Source: Patescibacteria group bacterium (GTDB lineage Bacteria; Patescibacteriota; Patescibacteriia; JAHJFT01). From it: 64,000 nt of DNA. Both the position numbers and the translations under genes were made by a program. The stretch lies in contig JAQTTB010000001.1 of assembly GCA_028710985.1 (NCBI GenBank), positions 19,280 to 83,279 of the forward strand. The letters run 5' to 3'. Positions 45,662-61,469 of this stretch are shown here, piece after piece. The notes beneath the pieces were generated by a model that was given only the letters and a program-made list of their open reading frames with translations, was not told the origin of the DNA and ran no database searches. How positions within the stretch are numbered: the stretch's first letter is position 1; the number at the start of each line of letters is the position of its first letter.

Positions 45662-47620
45662 TTATTTTATTTCAACGGCATTAATATTGTCAAAAACGCC
45701 ACTGATAAAGCGCAGATTAATTTTATTATTATAAATTTCCGCGATGGCGATTCTCACCTCTCCGACAATATAGTCATAAAATGCTTTCAAGTCAAACTGA
45801 TTCGCCTGCGTCGCCCAGTTTGCGCTGCGGAGGAACGCGCCATTCCGATCGAATGATTTTATATATATATTTCCGTCTGTTTTATAAGTAACCAGTATCT
45901 CTTCTTCTTCGCCCGTATCCAAATTTTGCGTCGCAACGAATATTGGCCCCGTGATTTTCTCTGCCGCTTGAAAATTTGAAACCAAGACGCCACTCTTCCT
46001 AAATATCTTAATATGCAAAACACCGGCATCAATAAATCCCACGATTATTTCATCCGTGTCATCGGCATCAATATCTCCAGCCGTGACCGTAACGCCGCCG
46101 CGAAAACCAGAAGTATACGCCATAAAATTACCCTGAATTTCCCCTCTTTCATTAAACACTAGTATATGCGGACCGCCGCCCGGACCCGGCGCGGTGATAA
46201 TTTCATCGTTCACCGTCCGGCTGTCCACATTTCCGACGGCGATATTCACGCCACCGCGGAAAAGCGAATTATACGCAAAAAATTGTCCGTACAATTTCCC
46301 TGTCTCGCTAAAAATACGCACCTGCGGACCGCCGCCCGGACCCGCGCCGACCACAATTTCTTTTTGACCGTCATTATTTACGTCGCCGCTCTGAGCCGTG
46401 AACCCCTTTTTGAAACTATCCGGAAACACCGCGAAGCTATCTTTGACTTCCCCGCCGCTCCCAAGCTCACGGACAACCGGCGTAAAACCAAGCGGCGCAC
46501 CGATTACAAGCGATGAACCGCTCTTTGCCGCTTCAAGCGCCAACTCAAGCGCAGCGCGCGCATCCACGCGCGTTCCCAAGCCTCCGGCAAAATCCGGATT
46601 GATCCCGTCAATTATCACGCCGCTTTTTACCAAAATTTCATTGATTTCACGAGCCGAGAGCCCGGGCGCGATTGATTTCACGAGTGCGGACACGCCGGAA
46701 ACAATCGGCGCCGCAAACGAAGTGCCCGACCAATCGTCATCATAGAATGTATCAAAATCCGCAATTGCCGAGTTATAAACACGCGCGCTCCATATATCCA
46801 TGCCCGGTGCCGAAACATCAACGCAGGCTTTGCCAAAATTTGAAAATTTCGCTTTTTGATCCAACGTGTCGGTTGCCGCGACTCCAAGTACGTATATTTC
46901 ATTCTCATATTGATCAATGCACACCGGAAATTCATCGTACATATCCAAGTTCGAGCCGCCCGATTCGTCCGGCGTATTGCCGGCCGCCGCCACTACTACT
47001 ACTCCCGCTTCCCAGGCGCGGCGCACCGCAGTTGACATATCCTCGCTAAAATTAAAACCTACAAAACTCAAATTAATCACATCCGCACCATTTCGAATGG
47101 CGTAATAAATCGCTTTTGCCACATTGTCCGAGAATCCGTTACCCGTGGCATCGAGCACCTGAAGCGGCATTATCTTGCTCTCCCAGGTGATTCCGGCCAT
47201 GCCGTTCCGATTATTCCCTTCGGCTGCGATGATGCTCGCCACCGCCGTGCCATGGCTAATTCCCTCTTCCGCATATCCGTTGGAAAAATTCGGCAATATA
47301 TTTCCGTTATTATCCGAGAAATTCCATCCATTCACATCATCAATATAATCATTCTTATCATCATCGATTCCGTTTGCCGGAATTTCATCTTCATTGATCC
47401 AAGCATTGCCATCCAATTCCGGATGCGAAATATCCACGGCCGTATCAATCACTGCGACAATCACCTTCGGACTGCCGGTCGAAATATCCCAGGCGCGTTC
47501 GGCATCAATCTGACGCAAATACCACTGACGCGAAAAATCCGTATCGTTTGGGGTGAAAGCCTGCGCGCCTTGAACCGCAACGAATACAAAAATTATTGTG
47601 CAGAATATAAACTTTTTCAC
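45662..47620 (-). CDS. secreted subtilisin-like (S8) serine protease fused to FG-GAP/VCBS beta-propeller repeats
   Basis: 652 aa with a GTG start and signal peptide MKKFIFCTIIFVFVAVQGAQA. Catalytic triad: AVIDTAVD, HGTAVASI, SGTSFAAPIVSG. C-terminal repeats: FxAY...FRGGVxVxxGDxDxDxxDEIIxGxGPGGGPxxxVF. Confidence 0.9.
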   Translation of the reverse strand: MKKFIFCTIIFVFVAVQGAQAFTPNDTDFSRQWYLRQIDAERAWDISTGSPKVIVAVIDTAVDISHPELDGNAWINEDEIPANGIDDDKNDYIDDVNGWNFSDNNGNILPNFSNGYAEEGISHGTAVASIIAAEGNNRNGMAGITWESKIMPLQVLDATGNGFSDNVAKAIYYAIRNGADVINLSFVGFNFSEDMSTAVRRAWEAGVVVVAAAGNTPDESGGSNLDMYDEFPVCIDQYENEIYVLGVAATDTLDQKAKFSNFGKACVDVSAPGMDIWSARVYNSAIADFDTFYDDDWSGTSFAAPIVSGVSALVKSIAPGLSAREINEILVKSGVIIDGINPDFAGGLGTRVDARAALELALEAAKSGSSLVIGAPLGFTPVVRELGSGGEVKDSFAVFPDSFKKGFTAQSGDVNNDGQKEIVVGAGPGGGPQVRIFSETGKLYGQFFAYNSLFRGGVNIAVGNVDSRTVNDEIITAPGPGGGPHILVFNERGEIQGNFMAYTSGFRGGVTVTAGDIDADDTDEIIVGFIDAGVLHIKIFRKSGVLVSNFQAAEKITGPIFVATQNLDTGEEEEILVTYKTDGNIYIKSFDRNGAFLRSANWATQANQFDLKAFYDYIVGEVRIAIAEIYNNKINLRFISGVFDNINAVEIK

Positions 47621-51557: not shown

Positions 51558-51782
51558 AAATAATTTATATCCTTTTGAATTTAATTCTTATCACGCAAGC
51601 GGCCATTGGCCCCGACCTTTTAGCCTGCGCGTTAATTAACTCTGGTACAAGTTCCGACGCCCCAACATAAAGTTGGCGGTCGGAATCCCGACTTCCGCCT
51701 GCGGCGGAATGTCGGGACATCAGCCCATACCCCGGAAACGGCTTCCATAAAAACCGCCTTCGGGGTATTTCCGATGATTAAT
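51558..51782 (-). promoter_or_regulatory. 225-nt structured leader and promoter region of the surface-protein gene
   Basis: The minus-strand RNA would contain AUACCCCG...CGGGGUAU (51729-51768) and a 14-bp bulged hairpin UCCCGACAUUCCGCC-GCAG-GGCGGAAGUCGGGA (about 51684-51716). A GGAAC box (51655-51651) is a possible ECF-type -35. There is a weak SD, AAAGGA, before the ATG. Confidence 0.45.
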
Positions 51783-53702: not shown

Positions 53703-53999
53703 ATGTCTTCATCCATTCGCTTATCCGTATCCGAAGCCGCCCGGCTTTTTGGCATTAGTGAAAAAACCCTGCGCCGCGCCATCATTAATAAGGAAATCAA
53801 CTATATCGTGGTTGCCGGCCGGTACAAGCTAAATTTTGAAAGCCTGGTCAAGTGGTCCCAGCAAAAAACCACGGTGCGCCGCAAATCCGAAAAATACGGC
53901 ATCGACCAATTTGTGGATAAATGGCGCCTCTCCGCCACCCTCTACTCCCCCAACCCACCCGCCACGGAACAAGAGAACAATTCAACAATACAACAATAG
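53703..53999 (+). CDS. small helix-turn-helix DNA-binding protein (excisionase/MerR-type HTH)
   Basis: 98 aa: LSVSEAARLFGISEKTLRRAIINKEINYIVVAGRYKLNFESLVKW. The C-terminal 11 codons are encoded by the SAACAA word array. Confidence 0.7.
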   Translation: MSSSIRLSVSEAARLFGISEKTLRRAIINKEINYIVVAGRYKLNFESLVKWSQQKTTVRRKSEKYGIDQFVDKWRLSATLYSPNPPATEQENNSTIQQ

Positions 54000-54074
54000 A
54001 ACGACCTATAAAAAAACAAGCGTTTTACCTATGCTTGTTTTTTTGTTGTATTGTTGAATTGTTGCGTTGTCCGC
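53967..54074. repeat. two facing 8-nt periodic word arrays around a bidirectional terminator hairpin
   Basis: 53967-54006 reads GAACAAGA GAACAATT CAACAATA CAACAATA GAACGACC. 54043-54074 reads TTGTTGTA TTGTTGAA TTGTTGCG TTGTCCGC. 53976-53996 and 54043-54063 are exact 21-nt reverse complements. The inner terminator is AAAAAAACAAGC-GTTTTACCTAT-GCTTGTTTTTTT (about 54010-54044). Confidence 0.9.
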
Positions 54075-55229
54075 TTACGCCGTTTCCAGCGCGAACTTGC
54101 ATTCCGGCTTCAGATCGAAATAAAGTCCGGAAATGTCGCGGCAGATGTCTTTCCAGTTATATTTTTCATTCACGAAAATCTTCGCGCGCGCGCCCAGCTC
54201 TTTCAGATTTTCGGTTTGCGGCAAATACGTCTCAAGCTTACGGATTAAATCTTCAACATTCTTATTTTCAAAACTGATTCCCGCTTCACTCACGACTTCC
54301 ATATTTTCCGGGATATCGCTCGCGATCACCGGCAAACCCCAGCCCATCGCTTCAAGCAAAGCGATCGGCAAACCTTCGGATTCGGACGGATGAACCAGCG
54401 CGTAAGCGTTGCCAAAAAGCGCATTCAACGGCTCGCCGTTCTGAAAACCGGTAAATACAATAGATTCGTCGCCGGCCGCCATCTCATGAAGTTCTTTCAC
54501 GTAATCATCTGTAAAAGCCGAGTCGCCGACGATCACGAGTTTTTTATTGCCAATTATCTCCGGATTACGGAATTTTAGAGTTTTATAAGCATCAATCAAA
54601 TAATGGGCGCCCTTATGACGCACCAGCCGCGAAACCATAATAATATACTCTTTAGGCTCAAGACCAAACTTTTTAAGATACTCGGTGTCGGCCGGATTCT
54701 GCATCCTAACGCCGTTCGGAATATATTGAGTCATGGAATCATAAGCTTCGGAGCAATACTGATTCAAAGTACGCGAAACCGTAATGGTGCGGTCCGCGAA
54801 ACGGCACGCTGACCATTCGCCAAGGCGAAGCATAGCGCGGGCAATAAATCCCCATTTTTGATGCTTGCGATCAATGCAGTGAAAAGTCACCACCACTTTG
54901 GTGCTGGGTCGCAAAATTTTCGGAAGCCACGAGAGTAGCGCCGGCCCGACGCCGTGAATGTGGATAATCTCAAAACCGCTCCGGCAGGCATGAATAATGC
55001 TCAAGAAAGTATGGCTAATGGCATCAAGATGCTTGGTCTTAAGGCTCGGGGTATAAATAAGATGCACCCCGTTAATCTGTTCCTCGTGGCCCTTTGAGTA
55101 CCACGGGCGACAGTATACAAAAACCTCCAGGCCGAGTTCAGCCAGGCCGCGCGAAAGCTCATCCACGTGGCGTTCAATACCACCGAAGATAGCCGGGATG
55201 CCTTTTTGTCCGATCATTGCTATTCTCAT
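54075..55229 (-). CDS. glycosyltransferase, GT4-like
   Basis: 384-aa ORF: MRIAMIGQKGIPAIFGGIERHV...ESEGLPIALLEAMGWGLPVIASDIPENMEVV. Confidence 0.85.
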   Translation of the reverse strand: MRIAMIGQKGIPAIFGGIERHVDELSRGLAELGLEVFVYCRPWYSKGHEEQINGVHLIYTPSLKTKHLDAISHTFLSIIHACRSGFEIIHIHGVGPALLSWLPKILRPSTKVVVTFHCIDRKHQKWGFIARAMLRLGEWSACRFADRTITVSRTLNQYCSEAYDSMTQYIPNGVRMQNPADTEYLKKFGLEPKEYIIMVSRLVRHKGAHYLIDAYKTLKFRNPEIIGNKKLVIVGDSAFTDDYVKELHEMAAGDESIVFTGFQNGEPLNALFGNAYALVHPSESEGLPIALLEAMGWGLPVIASDIPENMEVVSEAGISFENKNVEDLIRKLETYLPQTENLKELGARAKIFVNEKYNWKDICRDISGLYFDLKPECKFALETA

Positions 55230-55353
55230 ACCATGATTATTTGTAATGCGATTAATTTGTTATGTAATCTCATTAAATCCTCGTCTTGCCCGCCGAAATC
55301 CCGACCGAACGAAGTGAGCGTCGGGACGAAGGAGGGTCATTGCTATTCTCATA
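55214..55353. repeat. 17-bp direct repeat (TCATTGCTATTCTCATA) flanking a 106-bp insert that carries a REP-like hairpin
   Basis: Copies at 55214-55230 and 55337-55353, exactly 123 nt apart. The repeat contains the GT4 start (minus-strand ATGAGAATAGCAATGA). The insert contains ATCCCGAC-N15-GTCGGGAC (about 55298-55327). The upstream copy opens a 30-codon ORF, MRIAMTLLRPDAHFVRSGFRRARRGFNEIT*. Confidence 0.8.
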
Positions 55354-55413
55354 TTAAACAACCCACTATACCACATTTTTGCGTTTTTGTCAACTCTCGA
55401 GTCCGGCCAGCTC

Positions 55414-55442
55414 TTGACAAAACCCGCAATTTATGATATACT
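55414..55442 (+). promoter_or_regulatory. sigma70-type promoter upstream of the GC-rich lipoprotein gene
   Basis: TTGACA (55414-55419), 17 nt, TATACT (55437-55442). It leaves a ~215-nt leader before the ATG at 55665. Confidence 0.55.
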
Positions 55443-55664: not shown

Positions 55665-56699
55665 ATGAAGAACTCCAGGATAGTGCTGATTCTCTGCGCC
55701 CTGGTACTGATGGCCTGCGAGACGAGGTACGTGGACGTGGGCGGCGAGCCCGACACCTCCATCGACACCGCGTCCGACAGCGTGGAGCTCTGCTCCGACG
55801 GCCTGGACAACGACATGGACGGCCTGGTCGACTGCAACGACAACGACGGCGACGAGAACTGCCCGCCGTGCGCGGACGCGTCAACCGACGCCGTGGCCGA
55901 CGAGATCGAGGACAGCGCAGAAACCGACGTCCCGCCCGTGGAGCTCTGCTCCGACGGCCTGGACAACGACTTCGACGGACTCGTGGACTGCAACGACGGG
56001 GACGACTGCTGCGATGAAGCAGTGTGCGTTACGAGCGAGCACTGCGCTTCGGAAGACGCTTCAAGCGACTCCGAAGAGGAAGCCGACGCAGTCTCCGACT
56101 CGGGTGCGGATTCGGATCCCGCCGAGGACCCCGTGCCTGACACTGATCCCGACACCGCCTCCGACCCGGATAGCGCAAGCGATCCGGACGCGGTCTCTGA
56201 CCCGGACGTGGTGGACGCCGAAGCCGACGCAGCTGACATCCTCCACTCCGGCCTGGCCACGTTCAAGTGGTGCCGGCCCATGACCATGGCGCGCCCCGAC
56301 CACATTCTCGCGGAATGCTTTGTCTGGGGAAGCCTCTATGAAAGCTGGGATGACTCCTGGGAGCTGGCAACCGGCTCTCCGGACTTCGTCGCACCGGCCG
56401 ACAGCGACTGCATCGAGTTCACCCTGCCAGATCTGGATTACACGCTCCTCGGAATAAGCGTAGAGTGCAACATCACTGCCTATTCCGACTCGGCGTACGG
56501 GCCGTGGGGACGCATCTACGCTCTCGGCGAGTGCACGTGCGGCGGCAGCTGTGTCGTAAAAGGCACGCTTACCGTCCGTTCCGGTCCCGACGCTGATGAC
56601 GCAACCGCCTTGGATCTCACGAGCCTAGTCGTGCAGAATCCGCGATGCGCGTCCCTGAGCGACCAGGCCGGCAACTACGTCCTCTCACCTATTCCATAG
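55665..56699 (+). CDS. GC-rich secreted lipoprotein with two TSP3-like Ca-binding Cys/Asp repeats and a poly-acidic linker
   Basis: ATG at 55665 is preceded by GAGGAGGG. Lipobox: [18 protein letters not shown]. Repeats: [29 protein letters not shown] and [24 protein letters not shown]. Then a D/S/P/A-rich linker and a ~160-aa Cys-containing C-terminal domain. The ORF-track TTG start at 55488 is rejected. Confidence 0.75.
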
Positions 56700-56718
56700 G
56701 GGGTTCGTCTCTCCCCAT

Positions 56719-56768
56719 GGGCAGGATAAGCAAGGTCCCCCCCTACCTTGCCCCTGCCCGCCTTTTTT
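56719..56768 (+). terminator. rho-independent terminator of the GC-rich gene
   Basis: GGGCAGG...CAAGGT-CCCCCCCT-ACCTTG...CCTGCCC forms a nested stem (56719-56759), followed by CCTTTTTT. Confidence 0.7.
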
Positions 56769-56809
56769 CAGCGAATCATGCAAATGATTCATTGAAAAAA
56801 GGCAAAAAT

Positions 56810-56844
56810 AAAAAACGCCCCGTGTTTACCGAGGGCGTTTTTTT
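56810..56844. terminator. second, bidirectional terminator hairpin
   Basis: AAAAAACGCCC-CGTGTTTACCGA-GGGCGTTTTTTT. Confidence 0.6.
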
Positions 56845-56984
56845 GTGCATCTTAGTCAGAACATGGGGTTCGGGGGCGCAACTGAGCATGGCGCTAGGAA
56901 GCAGTGAATTGCCTATTTGCCGAGAGCGAACCCGCCTGCCAACGCCTGGCGTAGGCCTGGCGGGCAGGTTTGCGACCCCGAAAC

Positions 56985-57384
56985 TTCCTGCCTGCCGGCA
57001 GGCAGGTTGCATACTTTTGGTTACAAAAGTATGTCCCGCTGAAAGCGAACAAGAGTGATGCTAGAAAACAATAATCAATACCCAGACAAGCGGCAGGCTG
57101 TGGCTAGAAAATCCCAATATTAAAACAACTTGCACGAAAATATTTAATAGGATTCCCCCGGTACATTGAACCTGGATCCCCGCCTTCGCGGGGATGACGA
57201 AGAGAGCACTTTGCCACTTACCGTCATTCCCGCGAAAGCGGGAATCCAGAAACAAAGCCCCTCCAAAATCCCTCTCTGACACGTCGCTCGCGAGCGACGT
57301 GTCTCTGTCTCCCCCTTCCTGCCTGCCGGCAGGCAGGTCAGCCACCCCGAAACTTTTTGGTTACTTTTTGGTTACAAAAAGTAA
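56985..57384 (+). repeat. mosaic palindromic-unit repeat, copy B (expanded)
   Basis: 56985-57198 parallels copy A, with the same palindrome, hairpin, body and REP. It is followed by an inverted second REP (57223-57248), then the AAAATCCCTCTCTG...CTCCC unit interrupted by the palindrome ACACGTCGCTCGCGAGCGACGTGT. A second CCTGCCTGCCGGCAGGCAGG follows (57317-57336), then the hairpin TTACTTTTT-GGTTAC-AAAAAGTAA. Confidence 0.85.
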
Positions 57385-57459
57385 CGCGCCGGAGGCAAGA
57401 GACCAGAGGTAAAAAGATGCAAGAAAAAAATGGGAGGCCCAAACGATTGTAGGAGGAAC

Positions 57460-57489
57460 AAAAAGACGTGCCTTTAAGCACGCCTTTTT
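57460..57489. terminator. bidirectional terminator after the 631-aa gene
   Basis: AAAAAGACGTGC-CTTTAA-GCACGCCTTTTT. On the minus strand it lies 10 nt after the stop at 57499 and is followed by a U-run. Confidence 0.65.
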
Positions 57490-57498
57490 ATAATATTT

Positions 57499-59394
57499 TT
57501 ATGGACGGACTTTTCCAAGACCCGCCGCCCGCGTGTCATGCGCAAGCTCGGTCGTAATCAACGGAGTGGCAAACGACAAATCTTTACCGATAAATTCATC
57601 ATGCGCCGTCACCTTTATCCAGTCAACGAGCGACGCCGCCGTGCCCGCCTGATCCGCGGTCGGCACAATTTCCACCTCAAAGCTCAGGCCGATCACGGCC
57701 CCGGATTCAGCTGTGGCCGAAAGCTCTTTAAGCGACCAGGTTATCATTCCGGTGTCCGGATTATAATTAATGCTGTCCCCGGCCGTCACGCTTGAAAGCC
57801 CGGCATATGTAACATTCGGGGCAAGTTTTGCCTGCAGAAACATGTTGGTCAGATCGCTTGTGGTTTTTGGCAAATTCCAGAAAACCCAATACTTGGTCGG
57901 TCTCTCGACCTTGGGCGGCATGGAACCACGGCCAAGCTGATCACCGGTTTCGGCCCAATAACGCGCGAATGCCTGACTCGCGAACGGCGTTATCATTTTT
58001 ATATCAATACGTCCAGTTTTATAAACCGCAGCCCCTTCTTCCCCTTCAACGCGGTAACTCGCCAAAACCGCGACAGGCATTGTTATATTCTTCTGCGACT
58101 CGAGCTGTGAAAAATCCGGATTACTTTTTAGATATAAGGCGCCGGATACTTTTTTTGTCTCGCCCGGCGCAAGGCCTGCCGCACTTTCTTTAAAATAAAA
58201 TCTTCCATCGCGAAATTCCATTCCCTCGATGCGCGCCGTATTTATTAAATAAGCATCGGCTTCAACCGCGAGAGCGACGTCGGAAAGCGCAAAGTCGCCA
58301 ATATTTTTATACGATACCACGACATCCATTTTCTCGCCCCAGCCGGCAACCGGTTCGGATGTATCATTTATACGTATAACCGCTTCAATCTGCGGCGGAA
58401 CAATCTGCGCCGAAGCGGCTAAAATCTCCTGGCGCGCTTTCTCTTCACCCGCGGTTACGTATGTTTCGAAATAAAAATTCGCGCGGCTGTCCGGACAGGC
58501 AAGATAGCCGCGAATTGTAATCTCACCCTCTTTCCCGGCCTCAAGGTCGCCAATTCTAAAAACATTTTCTAACATAGGGAGCGATGAACTCAAGTATTCA
58601 AACCCGGCGGGCCAATACGCGTGAACCTCAGCATTCACGAGAGCGGCGCTTCCTGTATTTTTATATTTAATCTTAACATCAATATCCTGATTATTTATCA
58701 GCTTTTCCGGAGCCTCAAGCTCGGCCCAGAACACGGAATCATCTATAGTATAGCTTGCGGTGAACGGCTTCTGCTCATTCTTGCCGTTCTCGGCCTGTGT
58801 GAATCCGAGCGTTGACCAGACGGTTTGTGAATCTCCAACCGTGCCCCAAACGCGTCCATGCAAACGCAGTCTCCCCTCTCCCCCTGGGGGCAGGGTTCCG
58901 ATATCCACAATATTTTTTGTTGCGTCGGTCTGCGCCGGAATCGTATCTAAAAGTTGAAAATTATTCGGCAGCCTGAAACTCCAATAAGCCTCGTCAAGTA
59001 TTGATTCCGAATCGTTCCGGTAAACCCAGACCACGCTCACTTCTCCGCCGCTCACGATCTCCTGCGGCATAACTGCGGTATCAATATGAATCTTGTCGGC
59101 AATCGAAGGCTTGTAAAAATAAATAAGTGTGACAAAAACCGAGAGCGCAATAATGAGTCCTAAAAGCGCCATATCCACCCAGAAAAGAATTTTGGCGCGC
59201 TTGTATTTGCCTTCATAGCGCGTTTCATAATGATCGCGAAGCCGCGAGGTAATGGCTTTCGCCGGCTGTAAGGCCACATTCAGTGTCCCAATAAAAATAT
59301 TACCTCGTCCTTTGTCGGCCGCGGATTTAAATTCCTGCGGAGTCATAACATCTTCCGACACATTGGTTAAATCAGTTGTTTTTTCTTCTGGCAT
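57499..59394 (-). CDS. single-pass membrane protein with repeated CARDB/DUF11-like beta-sandwich modules (hypothetical)
   Basis: 631 aa with a TM helix (ILFWVDMALLGLIIALSVFVTLIYFY). Repeated segments resemble IGTLPPGGEGRLRLHG, IGDLEAGKEGEITIRG and LAPGETKKVSGALYL. Confidence 0.55.
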   Translation of the reverse strand: MPEEKTTDLTNVSEDVMTPQEFKSAADKGRGNIFIGTLNVALQPAKAITSRLRDHYETRYEGKYKRAKILFWVDMALLGLIIALSVFVTLIYFYKPSIADKIHIDTAVMPQEIVSGGEVSVVWVYRNDSESILDEAYWSFRLPNNFQLLDTIPAQTDATKNIVDIGTLPPGGEGRLRLHGRVWGTVGDSQTVWSTLGFTQAENGKNEQKPFTASYTIDDSVFWAELEAPEKLINNQDIDVKIKYKNTGSAALVNAEVHAYWPAGFEYLSSSLPMLENVFRIGDLEAGKEGEITIRGYLACPDSRANFYFETYVTAGEEKARQEILAASAQIVPPQIEAVIRINDTSEPVAGWGEKMDVVVSYKNIGDFALSDVALAVEADAYLINTARIEGMEFRDGRFYFKESAAGLAPGETKKVSGALYLKSNPDFSQLESQKNITMPVAVLASYRVEGEEGAAVYKTGRIDIKMITPFASQAFARYWAETGDQLGRGSMPPKVERPTKYWVFWNLPKTTSDLTNMFLQAKLAPNVTYAGLSSVTAGDSINYNPDTGMITWSLKELSATAESGAVIGLSFEVEIVPTADQAGTAASLVDWIKVTAHDEFIGKDLSFATPLITTELAHDTRAAGLGKVRP

Positions 59395-59411: not shown

Positions 59412-61469
59412 TTATTTAATCATGGACAATGTAAAAACCCCGGTTGTCTCGGCGATAATCTCATCGCGTCCATCATTGTCAATATCCGTCGCCGCAACGC
59501 CGACTCCGGAATTATCGTGCACATCATAAGCAAAAAATCCGCCGCCGTCGAGCGCCTGCCCTTTTTCGTTGAACACGCGCACATGCGGACCGCCGCCCAG
59601 GCCCGGACCAGTGATTATTTCATCCGCGCCATCGCCATCCGTATCCCCGGCCGCGACATTCACTCCGCCACGAAAATTTTTATCATAAGCGAAAAATCCC
59701 GGATTGATCAGGCGTCCGTCCAGCCCAAAAACGCGCACATGCGGACCCCCGCCGACTCCGGCTCCGGCAATTATCTCTTTCCAGCCGTCGCCGTTCAAAT
59801 CTCCGATCGTCACATTCACCCCGCCACGAAAATTTTTATCATAAGCGAAAAATCCCGGATTGATTAAAACGCCATCGCGGTTAAAAATTCTAATTTGCGG
59901 ACCGCCGCCATTTTCCGTTCCGGTGACGATTTCCATAAAACCATCCTTGTCCAAATCTCCGGCTGTGATATTTATGCCACCGCGATATTTATCCGTATAG
60001 GGATAGAACTGGGCATGCACCTTGCCGGAGGCATCATAAATCGTCACGCGATTTATATCACCGACCACGGTTTCGTCCTGACCGTCACTATTCAAGTCAG
60101 CAATCGCCACATTACTTCCGCCCCGGTAATCCGCTTCGTAGGCAAAAAAACCGGTGCGATAAACTTCGCCGTAACGGTTGAATATTCTTACAAAACTTCC
60201 GTTTGTGAATGTCGTGTTGGCAATTTTTTCGATCGGCCGAATCAGCACAATGCCGTCGCGCGGCGCGACAACTGTGCCGCTCACGATGGACCCGTCGTTT
60301 TTTTTCGGATCCTGGACACCGTGAATTTTTTCATATTCTCCAAAAAATTCGGTTGACTGGTTGCTGTAAGTAGAATTCACCAGCACCAAGCCGTTTTGAA
60401 ATTCGCGCTTCCACAAACCCTCCATTAAATCCGAACCGGAAGAAGTGAGGTTTTCCGCCGGACCCTTGGGAGCGCCGAGATATGCACCGTATTCATCATA
60501 CCACCAGGTTTGGCCGTGATCCTGGTCACCGAAATCAAAACTGTAATATCCGTCAAAAAGCATAGCGCTCGTATAACCGAAACGCATTGTCTTGTAATCA
60601 TTCTGGCTGCCGGTATTGTTCGTATTGGAATTTAGAATATTGGACGATGGCTGCTGCGATTCCGTGACGGCATCGCGGTAGTTTTTAAGCGCGTACGTCC
60701 AATCTTTGCTCGAAAAATTCTCAACCGTCACACCGTCGGTATGGTTTGCGTAATACGGGCCATCATTCAGCATCACGAGATATTTGGAGCCAATCGCACT
60801 CGCGGTTGCATCTAATGCTTTCGCGATTCCTTCTTTCCACAGGCGATTTGCGTCGCTTGATCCCGCCGGCTGACCGTCGCGGTTAAAATCAAGATTTCCG
60901 CCGGCAAAATATGTTACATCCTCCCAGCCATTATCAAAAAAAACACCATCCCATTTTCCCGAAGCGATAATTTCATTCTTAACAAAACTCGGCAAATAAT
61001 CATTCCAGCGTTGACCGGCAACCGAAAGGCATTCGTTCGTGATATTCATTATCCAATTGCCCTGCCAGAATGATCTTTTGTTTCCGGATGTATCAACGAG
61101 GTACCATTCATTTTTAATTCCCTGGGCCAATTTACGCCGCAGCGAACTTGAGGCCAGGCCGTCAATACTTTGTCGCACTTCAACGAGCGGAATATAAGCG
61201 AATATTTTTATATCCGGATTGATTCGCCTCATCGTGTCAATGGCGGAGGGATTGGATGTCTGGATATCCATGTCCAAAATCACCACATCCCATTCTGCAA
61301 GATCTCGCGCCTTGTCGTCTGCCACGCTCCAATGCAAAAAAATATTGGCCAACCGCGGCGCGTCCGTATTCAAAGGCGCACTTGCCGCCAAACCAGGCCA
61401 ACTAATAAATATAATTAACAAAATAAAAAAGCCTTGAACCCAAAACTTTAATTTACGGAGAATTTTCAT
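59412..61469 (-). CDS. secreted protein: TIM-barrel glycoside-hydrolase-like N-domain fused to FG-GAP/VCBS propeller repeats
   Basis: ATG at 61469 gives the signal peptide MKILRKLKFWVQGFFILLIIFISWPGLAASA; the ORF-track start at 61574 overlaps the upstream GT4. N-domain: WDVVILDMD...IFAYIPLVE...GVFFDNGWEDV (weak recollection of GH114/GHL-type). The C-terminal half has 6-7 repeats: FFAYDKNFRGGVNVxxGDLxGDGxxEIIxGxGxGGGPHVRVF. Confidence 0.65.
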   Translation of the reverse strand: MKILRKLKFWVQGFFILLIIFISWPGLAASAPLNTDAPRLANIFLHWSVADDKARDLAEWDVVILDMDIQTSNPSAIDTMRRINPDIKIFAYIPLVEVRQSIDGLASSSLRRKLAQGIKNEWYLVDTSGNKRSFWQGNWIMNITNECLSVAGQRWNDYLPSFVKNEIIASGKWDGVFFDNGWEDVTYFAGGNLDFNRDGQPAGSSDANRLWKEGIAKALDATASAIGSKYLVMLNDGPYYANHTDGVTVENFSSKDWTYALKNYRDAVTESQQPSSNILNSNTNNTGSQNDYKTMRFGYTSAMLFDGYYSFDFGDQDHGQTWWYDEYGAYLGAPKGPAENLTSSGSDLMEGLWKREFQNGLVLVNSTYSNQSTEFFGEYEKIHGVQDPKKNDGSIVSGTVVAPRDGIVLIRPIEKIANTTFTNGSFVRIFNRYGEVYRTGFFAYEADYRGGSNVAIADLNSDGQDETVVGDINRVTIYDASGKVHAQFYPYTDKYRGGINITAGDLDKDGFMEIVTGTENGGGPQIRIFNRDGVLINPGFFAYDKNFRGGVNVTIGDLNGDGWKEIIAGAGVGGGPHVRVFGLDGRLINPGFFAYDKNFRGGVNVAAGDTDGDGADEIITGPGLGGGPHVRVFNEKGQALDGGGFFAYDVHDNSGVGVAATDIDNDGRDEIIAETTGVFTLSMIK

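Follow-up and report, generated by a model that had tools for sequence, protein, structure and literature searches.

Duplicated start region of the GT4 gene

The window analysed here, a 64-kb stretch (64,000 nucleotides) of the genome of a Patescibacteria group bacterium, contains a GT4 glycosyltransferase gene that is preceded by a second copy of its own start region, with a spacing of 123 bp. We give a probability of about 0.5 to the reading that these 123 bp represent the window version of an old leader cassette of one GT4 orthologue group in Patescibacteria, and that this cassette controls or couples translation of the GT4 gene. The cassette is best read as a control region that would consist of a leader open reading frame (ORF) and a stem-loop, with the leader start duplicating the start of the gene itself. 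The upstream and downstream copies are referred to as the decoy and the real start respectively.

The 17-mer TCATTGCTATTCTCATA occurs in the window in two exact copies (Table 1), and no third copy is found in the window even when two mismatches are allowed (0.01 expected). It reads T-ATG-AGA-ATA-GCA-ATG-A on the minus strand, which corresponds to positions -1 to +16 of the GT4 ORF. The GT4 start is the sole ORF start in the window with an upstream copy of itself. It is not preceded by a Shine-Dalgarno (SD) sequence, whereas SD sequences are present at other genes of the window. The N-terminus of the closest GT4 orthologues is either MRIAMIGQKG or MKIAMIGQKG, indicating that position 55229 is the true GT4 start. 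The independent Logan assembly L081 (SRR22315506) is 100% identical to the window over 7.7 kb, with the 123 bp included, indicating that the duplication is not a one-off assembly artefact.

The database proteins of the window lineage (P0001) and of the L082 lineage (P0010) are called from Met5 or Met10, not from Met1. An exact look-up of the true GT4 protein finds nothing, because the gene callers began the protein at Met5. A protein called from Met5 was rejected as a proxy for the cassette, because L173 has such a protein and no cassette.

An earlier reading of this DNA from its letters only (the sequence-only reading) had reported that the 17-mer occurs twice, 123 nt apart, and holds the first five GT4 codons on the minus strand, that a 30-codon ORF begins in the upstream copy and stops 30 nt short of the real start, and that a REP-like hairpin within the 106 bp between the copies is also seen in the surface-protein leader at about 51.69-51.72 kb. 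Every one of its factual statements is correct on re-check. The ORF is located at 55352..55260, and the hairpins share the arms only, the loop being different.

The cassette in orthologous loci

For comparison, 173 loci, all of the Patescibacteria type, were gathered by protein search, exact look-ups and scans of genome and metagenome collections. Start-region statistics are based on 95 non-redundant orthologue lineages, and about 1.2 Mb of related loci were scanned for copies. A scan for start copies with up to three mismatches detects three lineages, and the decayed copies in L003, L097, L169 and L171 were recognised by reading the leaders. The cassette was then searched for with an nhmmer profile built from nine units and with a 12-nt scan. 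The profile recovers all nine units and gives no other match in the ~1.2 Mb.

The gene order of the window and of the closest loci is FG-GAP protein, DUF11 protein, divergent lipoprotein, GT4, HTH_17, sigma factor, DUF5667 protein and ~1260-residue protein. In the cassette-less relatives L084, L085-88 and L089-93, the promoter is followed by an AT-rich leader of 25-45 nt and then by the ATG. Compared with the leaders of L084, L085-88 and L089, the window has 106 bp more and an extra copy of the start region. The same architecture is found, at the same junction (+16|+17), in syntenic orthologues of at least eight other Patescibacteria lineages, and its parts are arranged in the order of decoy start, hairpin closed by CCC...GGG, purine-rich SD-like tract, AT-rich spacer and real start. 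Thus, the sequence-only reading is right that the segment is extra relative to loci that lack the 123 bp, but the homologous, diverged inserts at the same junction in at least eight lineages speak against a recent insertion.

The number of mismatches between decoy and real start ranges from 0 to 7 of 17 among the units. L082/83/94 (73% protein identity) contain their own exact 17-mer, TATGCGTATTGCAATGA, twice, 103 nt apart and at the same junction. Two mismatches are found in L095/145/172, five in each of L003 and L171, six in L169 and seven in L097. Both copies with independent divergence, the pattern that the sequence-only reading had set against its own proposal, are seen in most lineages (2-7 of 17 positions differ). 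L170 contains two cassette units in tandem (1290-1518). The outer start copies share 27 identical nt, and the middle copy matches them at 67%, which is also the identity between the two inserts. We found no way to obtain this order by simple re-insertion or unequal crossing-over.

A shorter variant is located 53 nt upstream of the GT4 start in L010/L110 (55% protein identity), in which a 12-nt start copy is followed by the hairpin CCCGCAGGGCTGCGGG. In this variant CATGAAGGTCGCC precedes the hairpin CCGCAGGGCTGCGGG, as compared with ATGAAGGTCGCG of the gene, and the junction is different. It could be of independent origin or a deletion derivative. The leaders of L106 (~55-75 nt upstream of the GT4 start) and L041 (~30 nt upstream) contain the hairpin GGGGCGAG or GGGGCAAG without a recognisable decoy, and may be decayed relatives of the cassette.

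The search for further copies of the 106-bp segment, which the sequence-only reading had proposed, finds none either in the window or in the ~1.2 Mb of related loci. Exact-pattern scans with two cassette cores give no match in viral contigs. Repeats of at least 14 nt at a spacing of 40-250 nt in 1.19 Mb consist of coding repeats, these cassettes and one 55-nt repeat in L011. This last repeat (L011 3163-3372) is exact, includes an SD sequence and a start codon, and flanks a run of N, being a scaffolding artefact.

Structure and conservation of the leader

The features of the window leader are listed in Table 1. The end of the -10 hexamer of promoter P1 is separated from the decoy ATG by 12 nt. 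A TTGACA-17-TATAnT(+TG) site is also present upstream of the decoy start in L082, L170, L169, L095 and L171, and a P1-equivalent promoter is present as well in the cassette-less orthologues whose leaders were read. The sequence-only reading that the gene is left intact and that an upstream ORF (uORF) lies between the original promoter and the gene holds on both points, and this promoter is conserved. The folding energy of the window stem-loop is -21.3 kcal/mol (z = -2.4 versus shuffles). The SD-like tract has the counterparts GGGGCGAGGA, GGGCAAGCGAGG and GGGCGAGAAAAGGA in other lineages, and in the window it is separated from the real GT4 start by an AT-rich spacer of ~45 nt. The overlap of the uORF2 stop with the GT4 start, as ATGA, is the textbook geometry for a predicted termination-reinitiation (translational coupling). 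The leader has no match to an Rfam covariance model in the window (E<=1) or in seven other cassette-bearing loci (E<=5), and no terminator-like site is found on the gene strand in any cassette scanned.

Table 1. Positions of the GT4 gene, the parts of its leader and the related hairpins in the window
Feature	Position	Strand	Description
Promoter P1	55365..55393	-	TTGACA (55393-55388), 17 nt, TG-extended TATAGT (55370-55365); 11/12 matches
Decoy start region (U)	55337..55353	-	TATGAGAATAGCAATGA, exact copy of GT4 -1..+16
uORF1	55260..55352	-	MRIAMTLLRPDAHFVRSGFRRARRGFNEIT*, 30 codons; starts at decoy ATG; stop ends 30 nt before real ATG
Insert between start copies	55231..55336	-	106 bp; homologous to 82-96-bp inserts at the same junction in L082, L169, L170 (two copies), L171, L095, L003 and L097
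Stem-loop	55287..55339	-	Outer stem UG.CCC.CC / GG.GGG.CA, beginning at +14 to +19 of the decoy ORF
Inner stem of stem-loop	55327-55320 / 55305-55298	-	GUCCCGAC / GUCGGGAU, 14-nt loop; TCCCGAC-14 nt-GTCGGGA at 55299-55326
Purine-rich SD-like tract	55278..55291	-	GGGCAAGACGAGGA, directly 3' of the hairpin 3' arm
uORF2	55226..55273	-	MRLHNKLIALQIIMV*, 15 codons; GAGGA and 4 nt before ATG; TGA overlaps GT4 ATG as ATGA
Weak promoter-like site P2	55236..55263	-	ATAACA, 16 nt, AATAAT; 9/12 matches; -10 hexamer ends 6 nt before real ATG
Real start region (D)	55214..55230	-	TATGAGAATAGCAATGA, GT4 -1..+16
GT4 glycosyltransferase gene	54075..55229	-	384 residues; Pfam PF00534, PF13439, PF13579; start without SD
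Two adjacent hairpins	51654..51717	+	Arms T(T/C)CCGAC...GTCGG(A/G)A as in the inner stem of the leader

The decoy is 17 nt long with an intact T-ATG in all units. The T-ATG, T9 and T15 are kept in 9/9 lineages, and there are no indels, so that frame and length are kept as well. The insert begins in all units with CCC (or TCC) right after ...ATGA. When each unit is folded separately, a stable hairpin that starts at this CCC is found in 8/9 units, with z-scores of -2.1 to -3.5 relative to shuffles, and the interior of the hairpin differs by lineage. In several units the pairing is retained by G-U pairs on the sense strand, which favours a structure at the RNA level. The hairpin arms of L170B and L171 are CCUCC and GGAGG. 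The hairpin is followed by a common tract, GGGGC(G/A)AG plus purines, and then by an unconserved AT-rich spacer of similar length before the T-ATG of the gene. Conservation is concentrated in the hairpin half of the insert, and the 3' half is scrambled. A uORF begins at the decoy ATG in 9/9 units, with a length of 8-25 codons outside the window and 30 codons in the window, and the leader peptide is not conserved past residue 6.

The mismatches between decoy and real start are located, in 28 of 29 cases, at positions that are also variable among the 95 real GT4 starts. This result, together with the conservation of ATG, length and frame, suggests that the decoy either is selected as a working start or is refreshed too often to decay. 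Selection on the decoy at the peptide level is not demonstrated, the few decoy-specific changes being uninformative.

The REP-like part (resembling repetitive extragenic palindromes) of the insert is limited to the inner stem arms of 7-8 bp. Palindromes of the T(T/C)CCGAC type form three hairpins in total in the window, namely the inner stem of the leader and the adjacent pair between the DUF5667 gene and the gene for a 1259-residue protein. The hairpin at 51686-51717 has the TCCCGAC/GTCGGGA arms of the leader with a different loop, and its neighbour at 51654-51683 has TTCCGAC...GTCGGAA. Among the 173 loci, this palindrome pattern is found outside this genome only once, in L144. In the window lineage, the loop that the leader hairpin had ancestrally may have given way to a small palindrome of this kind.

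Age of the cassette and copying between the start regions

The identity of the inserts is 51-72% overall, and it tracks that of the GT4 proteins, with no such excess over the host genomes as would indicate recent spread. Insert and GT4 protein identities are 72% versus 81% for L095-L003, 70% versus 69% for L095-L097, and 62% versus 80% for L082-L169. Inserts of distant pairs are 51-60% identical, and the window insert is 52-60% identical to any other. Uniformly high identity, terminal repeats and other insertion sites, as expected of a recently spreading mobile element, are not found in the sequence searched. The cassette appears instead to be an old, locus-specific leader that is inherited vertically.

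In the GT4 tree, the cassette-bearing lineages are interleaved with cassette-less ones. For example, L001, which is 84% identical to both L095 and L003, has no cassette, and its leader is collinear with the region of L095 upstream of the decoy. The simplest history that the comparison offers would be one early origin and vertical descent with at least five losses. The losses probably occurred by deletion between the two start copies, because such a deletion would yield exactly the cassette-less form.

The identity of decoy and real start in some lineages calls for a further process. Two real start regions taken at random from the 95 lineages show 4.45 differences on average and match fully in 1.2% of cases. 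The window codons AGA ATA GCA are unique among these lineages, and a decoy that is constrained to encode MRIAM would be identical by chance with a probability of ~0.006 (~0.6%), as estimated from the codon usage of this genome. Nevertheless, decoy and real start are identical at 17/17 positions in the window and in L082. In L170 the identity of 27 nt includes 8 non-coding nt and spans copies that are 202 nt apart, with a diverged copy in between. Because chance identity is rare and the codons are lineage-specific, these results point to copying between the starts after the cassette arose. The 17/17 identity in the window seems to reflect later short-patch copying between the copies, or selection for identity, and not a fresh target-site duplication. 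Replication misalignment, short-patch conversion, and excision with re-integration are possible routes, and it is from the pattern of identities that we infer a copying mechanism.

Proposed mechanism

We infer from the arrangement of the leader that the decoy is translated and that the cassette has a regulatory role. The cassette would have arisen by an early duplication of the GT4 start region (-1..+16) around ~90 nt of foreign sequence. Transcription from P1 would place the decoy, with the SD-less initiation context of the gene, first on the message. Ribosomes would load at the decoy and translate the short leader ORF into or through the stem-loop, opening the stem. The stem-loop would begin where the initiating ribosome ends (+14 to +19), and would be met within the first few codons. 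Translation of the leader ORF could then set the number of ribosomes that arrive at the SD-less real start. They could get there by re-initiating after crossing the unstructured AT-rich spacer, or the SD-like tract beside the 3' arm could be exposed and serve as a loading site. In the window, an additional relay might operate through uORF2, the stop of which overlaps the GT4 ATG. A stem-loop just downstream of a start codon acts on initiation in the case of the fepA translation-activating stem-loop (TASL; PMC11979758, citing Jagodnik et al. 2017).

Several results weigh against this reading. The hairpin is local, ends 45-60 nt before the real ATG and does not sequester the real start, and the SD-like tract is likewise located 45-60 nt from the real ATG, beyond the normal SD distance. 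The whole leader of the window does not fold better than shuffled sequence. RNAalifold detects no conserved structure on MAFFT alignments, in which the 3' arms mis-align, and no alternative pairing that is conserved across the leaders is found with an alignment of limited quality. The length of the uORF (8-30 codons) and the position of its stop vary. uORF2 is confined to the window lineage and has no counterpart in the other cassette units. P2 is not a general feature, as the window shares such a site only with L169 and L170, and L082, L095 and L171 lack one. About 85 of the 95 orthologue lineages lack the cassette, indicating that it is dispensable, and vertical descent demands the losses to be independent, at least five in number. 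The perfect repeats in three lineages are not explained by vertical descent alone. Finally, the copy searches covered the GT4 neighbourhoods and one 64-kb window, so that dispersed copies may exist elsewhere in these genomes.

Coupling mediated by uORF2 was considered as a general mechanism and rejected, because uORF2 is found in the window lineage only. An internal promoter that yields a leaderless GT4 mRNA was rejected as a general explanation, because promoter-like sites are found only in the window, L169 and L170.

Alternative explanations

The cassette may be a functionless relic, namely an old accidental insertion or duplication that has been tolerated since the copy of the start keeps the gene intact, and that decays slowly and disappears through deletion between the repeats. 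The absence of the cassette from most orthologues, the frequent losses, the unconserved 3' half and the variable uORF are consistent with such decay. However, the position of the hairpin and its CCC...GGG closure outlast the scrambled spacers, and the decoy ATG, length and frame are kept in 9/9 lineages without indels. The cassette also persists, although the flanking repeats should ease its deletion. We therefore consider a relic unlikely.

It is also quite unlikely that the cassette is a site-specific mini-element that excises and re-integrates (homes) at the GT4 start, using staggered cleavage of 17 nt or a 17-bp att-like core. Every re-integration of such an element would renew the identical flanks from the current host sequence, as seen in the perfect and host-specific repeats of the window and L082. 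The identical junction in all lineages, the tandem units of L170 and the patchy distribution fit homing as well, and the diverged decoys resemble GT4 starts of the other type (Lys or Arg at codon 2), as if cassettes moved between alleles. The decoy and real peptides of L097 are MRLVM and MKIAM respectively. However, the cassette has neither a recombinase nor a transposase linked to it: no recombinase gene is found in or beside it, and the neighbouring genes for GT4, HTH_17, sigma factor and DUF5667 protein are the same with or without the cassette. A segment of 82-106 bp is too small to encode anything or to circularise easily, the divergence of the inserts tracks the host gene, and no copies are seen at other sites. 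The order of the L170 units (outer copies identical, middle copy diverged) is not compatible with simple re-insertion at the gene start.

Stem-loops at the 5' end and stabilising SD-like sequences (STAB-SD) are known to stabilise mRNA in Gram-positive bacteria. The cassette may likewise be a 5' stabiliser, in which the stem-loop, together with a ribosome sitting on the decoy or the SD-like tract, would shield the GT4 message from decay that depends on the 5' end. The hairpin is located ~20-70 nt from the predicted start of the P1 transcript, the SD-like tract is present in most units without a start codon at SD distance, and it is the structure, not the sequence, that is conserved. We regard this function as improbable, because the decoy lies 12 to ~50 nt from the P1 -10 hexamer, depending on the lineage, so that the hairpin is not 5'-terminal, and because the resemblance of the decoy to the start of the gene is left unexplained.

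Decidedly improbable, too, is the broader proposal of a site-specific element that renews itself, or of a bypass- or intron-like gap. The five decoy codons would then look like real GT4 codons, and be reset again and again to the current sequence of the gene, for one of two reasons: the ~100 nt between the 17-nt repeats would be skipped, or excised and re-inserted, by ribosome hopping, RNA excision or reversible DNA excision, or a dedicated copying process would keep the two starts identical.

The sequence-only reading had proposed the insertion of an element into codon 6 with a 17-bp target duplication. In the form of a recent insertion of a dispersed, non-autonomous MITE (miniature inverted-repeat transposable element) or REP-like element with a fresh target-site duplication, this origin is very unlikely. 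It accounts for the perfect 17-bp direct repeats around a hairpin-bearing segment of 106 bp, for the close orthologues without the segment, and for the recurrence of the inner stem arms at 51.65-51.72 kb. However, terminal inverted repeats are absent, and 55205-55365 contains a single inverted repeat, the internal TCCCGAC/GTCGGGA. No second copy is found in the 64 kb, the ~1.2 Mb of related loci or the viral contigs. The same site is filled in at least eight other lineages by homologous inserts with decayed repeats, the similarity of which follows that of GT4 and of the hosts, and the window insert is too unlike all others to be a young copy of any shared element.

It is extremely unlikely that the ~100 nt are a bypass- or intron-like gap, which is skipped by ribosome hopping or removed by RNA excision such that the five decoy codons provide the real N-terminus. 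In its favour, the gap starts with a hairpin and has matched sequences on either side, a layout known from T4 gene 60, and the decoy codons vary like real GT4 N-termini (M-[KR]-[ILV]-[AV]-[MIL]). However, an intact ATG and a full ORF at the real copy in every lineage make bypass unnecessary for the product, no stop or rare codon follows the take-off site, and the nascent chain would have only 5 residues. At codon 5, where the real copy has AUG, the decoy has AUA in L003 and UUG in L169, and the two copies agree at this codon in the other 7 units. Neither a ribozyme nor an intron family is detected, and the few decoy-specific changes carry no information on selection at the peptide level.

Other features of the window

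The P1 promoter of the GT4 leader is one of two TG-extended, near-consensus promoters arranged back to back at 55365-55442, which are TTGACA-17-TATAGT on the minus strand and TTGACA-17-TATACT on the plus strand. The pair forms an imperfect inverted repeat of 27 nt (55367-55393 and 55414-55440), and this arrangement is conserved in L082 and L171. The mirror promoter on the plus strand serves the divergent gene. At the other end of the GT4 gene, the region 53964-54083 between the convergent GT4 and HTH_17 genes contains a terminator-like hairpin (54008-54046) along with long inverted repeats rich in AT, and is probably a bidirectional terminator.

The non-coding region 56700-57500 is dense in palindromes and repeats. 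CTTCCTGCCTGCCGGCAGGCAGGT occurs in it twice (56984 and 57315), and CTGGATCCCCGCCTTCGCGGGGATGACG pairs with CGTCATTCCCGCGAAAGCGGGAATCCAG at 57172-57249. Weak, sub-threshold Rfam matches are obtained for a ylbH leader at 56717-56846 and for rsmX at 57223-57341. Coding repeats with a period of 156 nt are located at 55781-56004, 59572-59883 and 46167-46344, in the divergent Asp-rich lipoprotein and in FG-GAP-type surface proteins, and are seen in many orthologous loci as well.

Implications

To our knowledge, almost nothing is known about gene regulation in the Candidate Phyla Radiation. If the proposed reading is correct, the cassette would be a previously undescribed cis-acting leader in these bacteria, and its build would be unusual in that an SD-less initiation region is duplicated as a decoy before a stem-loop. 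The cassette is a conserved, unannotated cis-element in a phylum that is little understood, and its flanking repeats show homogenisation. If the self-renewing or bypass-like proposal were true, the cassette would represent a kind of element not yet described in bacteria. The flanking repeats ease the loss of the cassette by deletion and have been re-homogenised in some lineages, and therefore it may serve as a natural system for short-patch templated copying between close direct repeats. In practice, gene callers misplace the GT4 start in some cassette loci, and a repeat-flanked hairpin of this sort is easily taken for the insertion of a mobile element.

Comparison with known systems

The cassette resembles attenuators of the ermC, cat86 and cmlA type in that a short leader ORF is located on the same transcript, downstream of the promoter, and in that the early codons of this ORF lie in the 5' arm of a stem-loop upstream of the gene. 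The resemblance extends to a CCUCC-like 5' arm and a GGAGG-like 3' arm in L170B and L171. Unlike in erm/cat-type attenuators, the stem-loop of the cassette holds neither the real start nor an SD sequence at working distance, the leader start copies the start of the gene, the peptide is not conserved past residue 6, and no inducer is known. In the fepA TASL (PMC11979758), the stem-loop is located just 3' of the mRNA under the initiating ribosome, which corresponds to +14 to +19 in the cassette. In contrast to the fepA TASL, the stem-loop of the cassette follows a decoy ORF and not the gene itself, its activity is predicted, and no small RNA partner is known.

MITEs, REPs and the palindromic elements of Rickettsia share with the cassette the form of a hairpin insert of ~100 bp with direct repeats, which is present or absent among relatives and leaves the gene intact. 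The cassette differs from them in being located, in the sequence searched, at a single locus, without terminal inverted repeats or dispersed copies found there, in having a repeat of 17 nt, which would be an unusually long target duplication, and in its divergence, which follows the host gene. A literature search for target duplications that restore a start codon and for 17-bp duplications yields nothing relevant in bacteria, apart from one paper on Proteus with a 17-bp duplication.

The 5' end of prfC is the integration site of SXT/R391 elements, which have a 17-bp att core. The cassette is similar to these elements in its insertion in the 5' end of a gene, its identical 17-bp flanks and the restoration of the start, but it is ~100 bp long as compared with ~100 kb, it has no integrase, and its core is host-specific. 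As in T4 gene 60 and the mitochondrial byp elements, a hairpin stands at the beginning of a non-coding gap of 50-100 nt, and matched sequences lie on either side of the gap; unlike in these systems, the downstream copy has its own start, there is no take-off stop, and the copies are mismatched in some lineages. The cassette is outside every named family. The MITE, the erm/cat-type attenuator, the bypass and the integrative element each fail in at least one defining feature.

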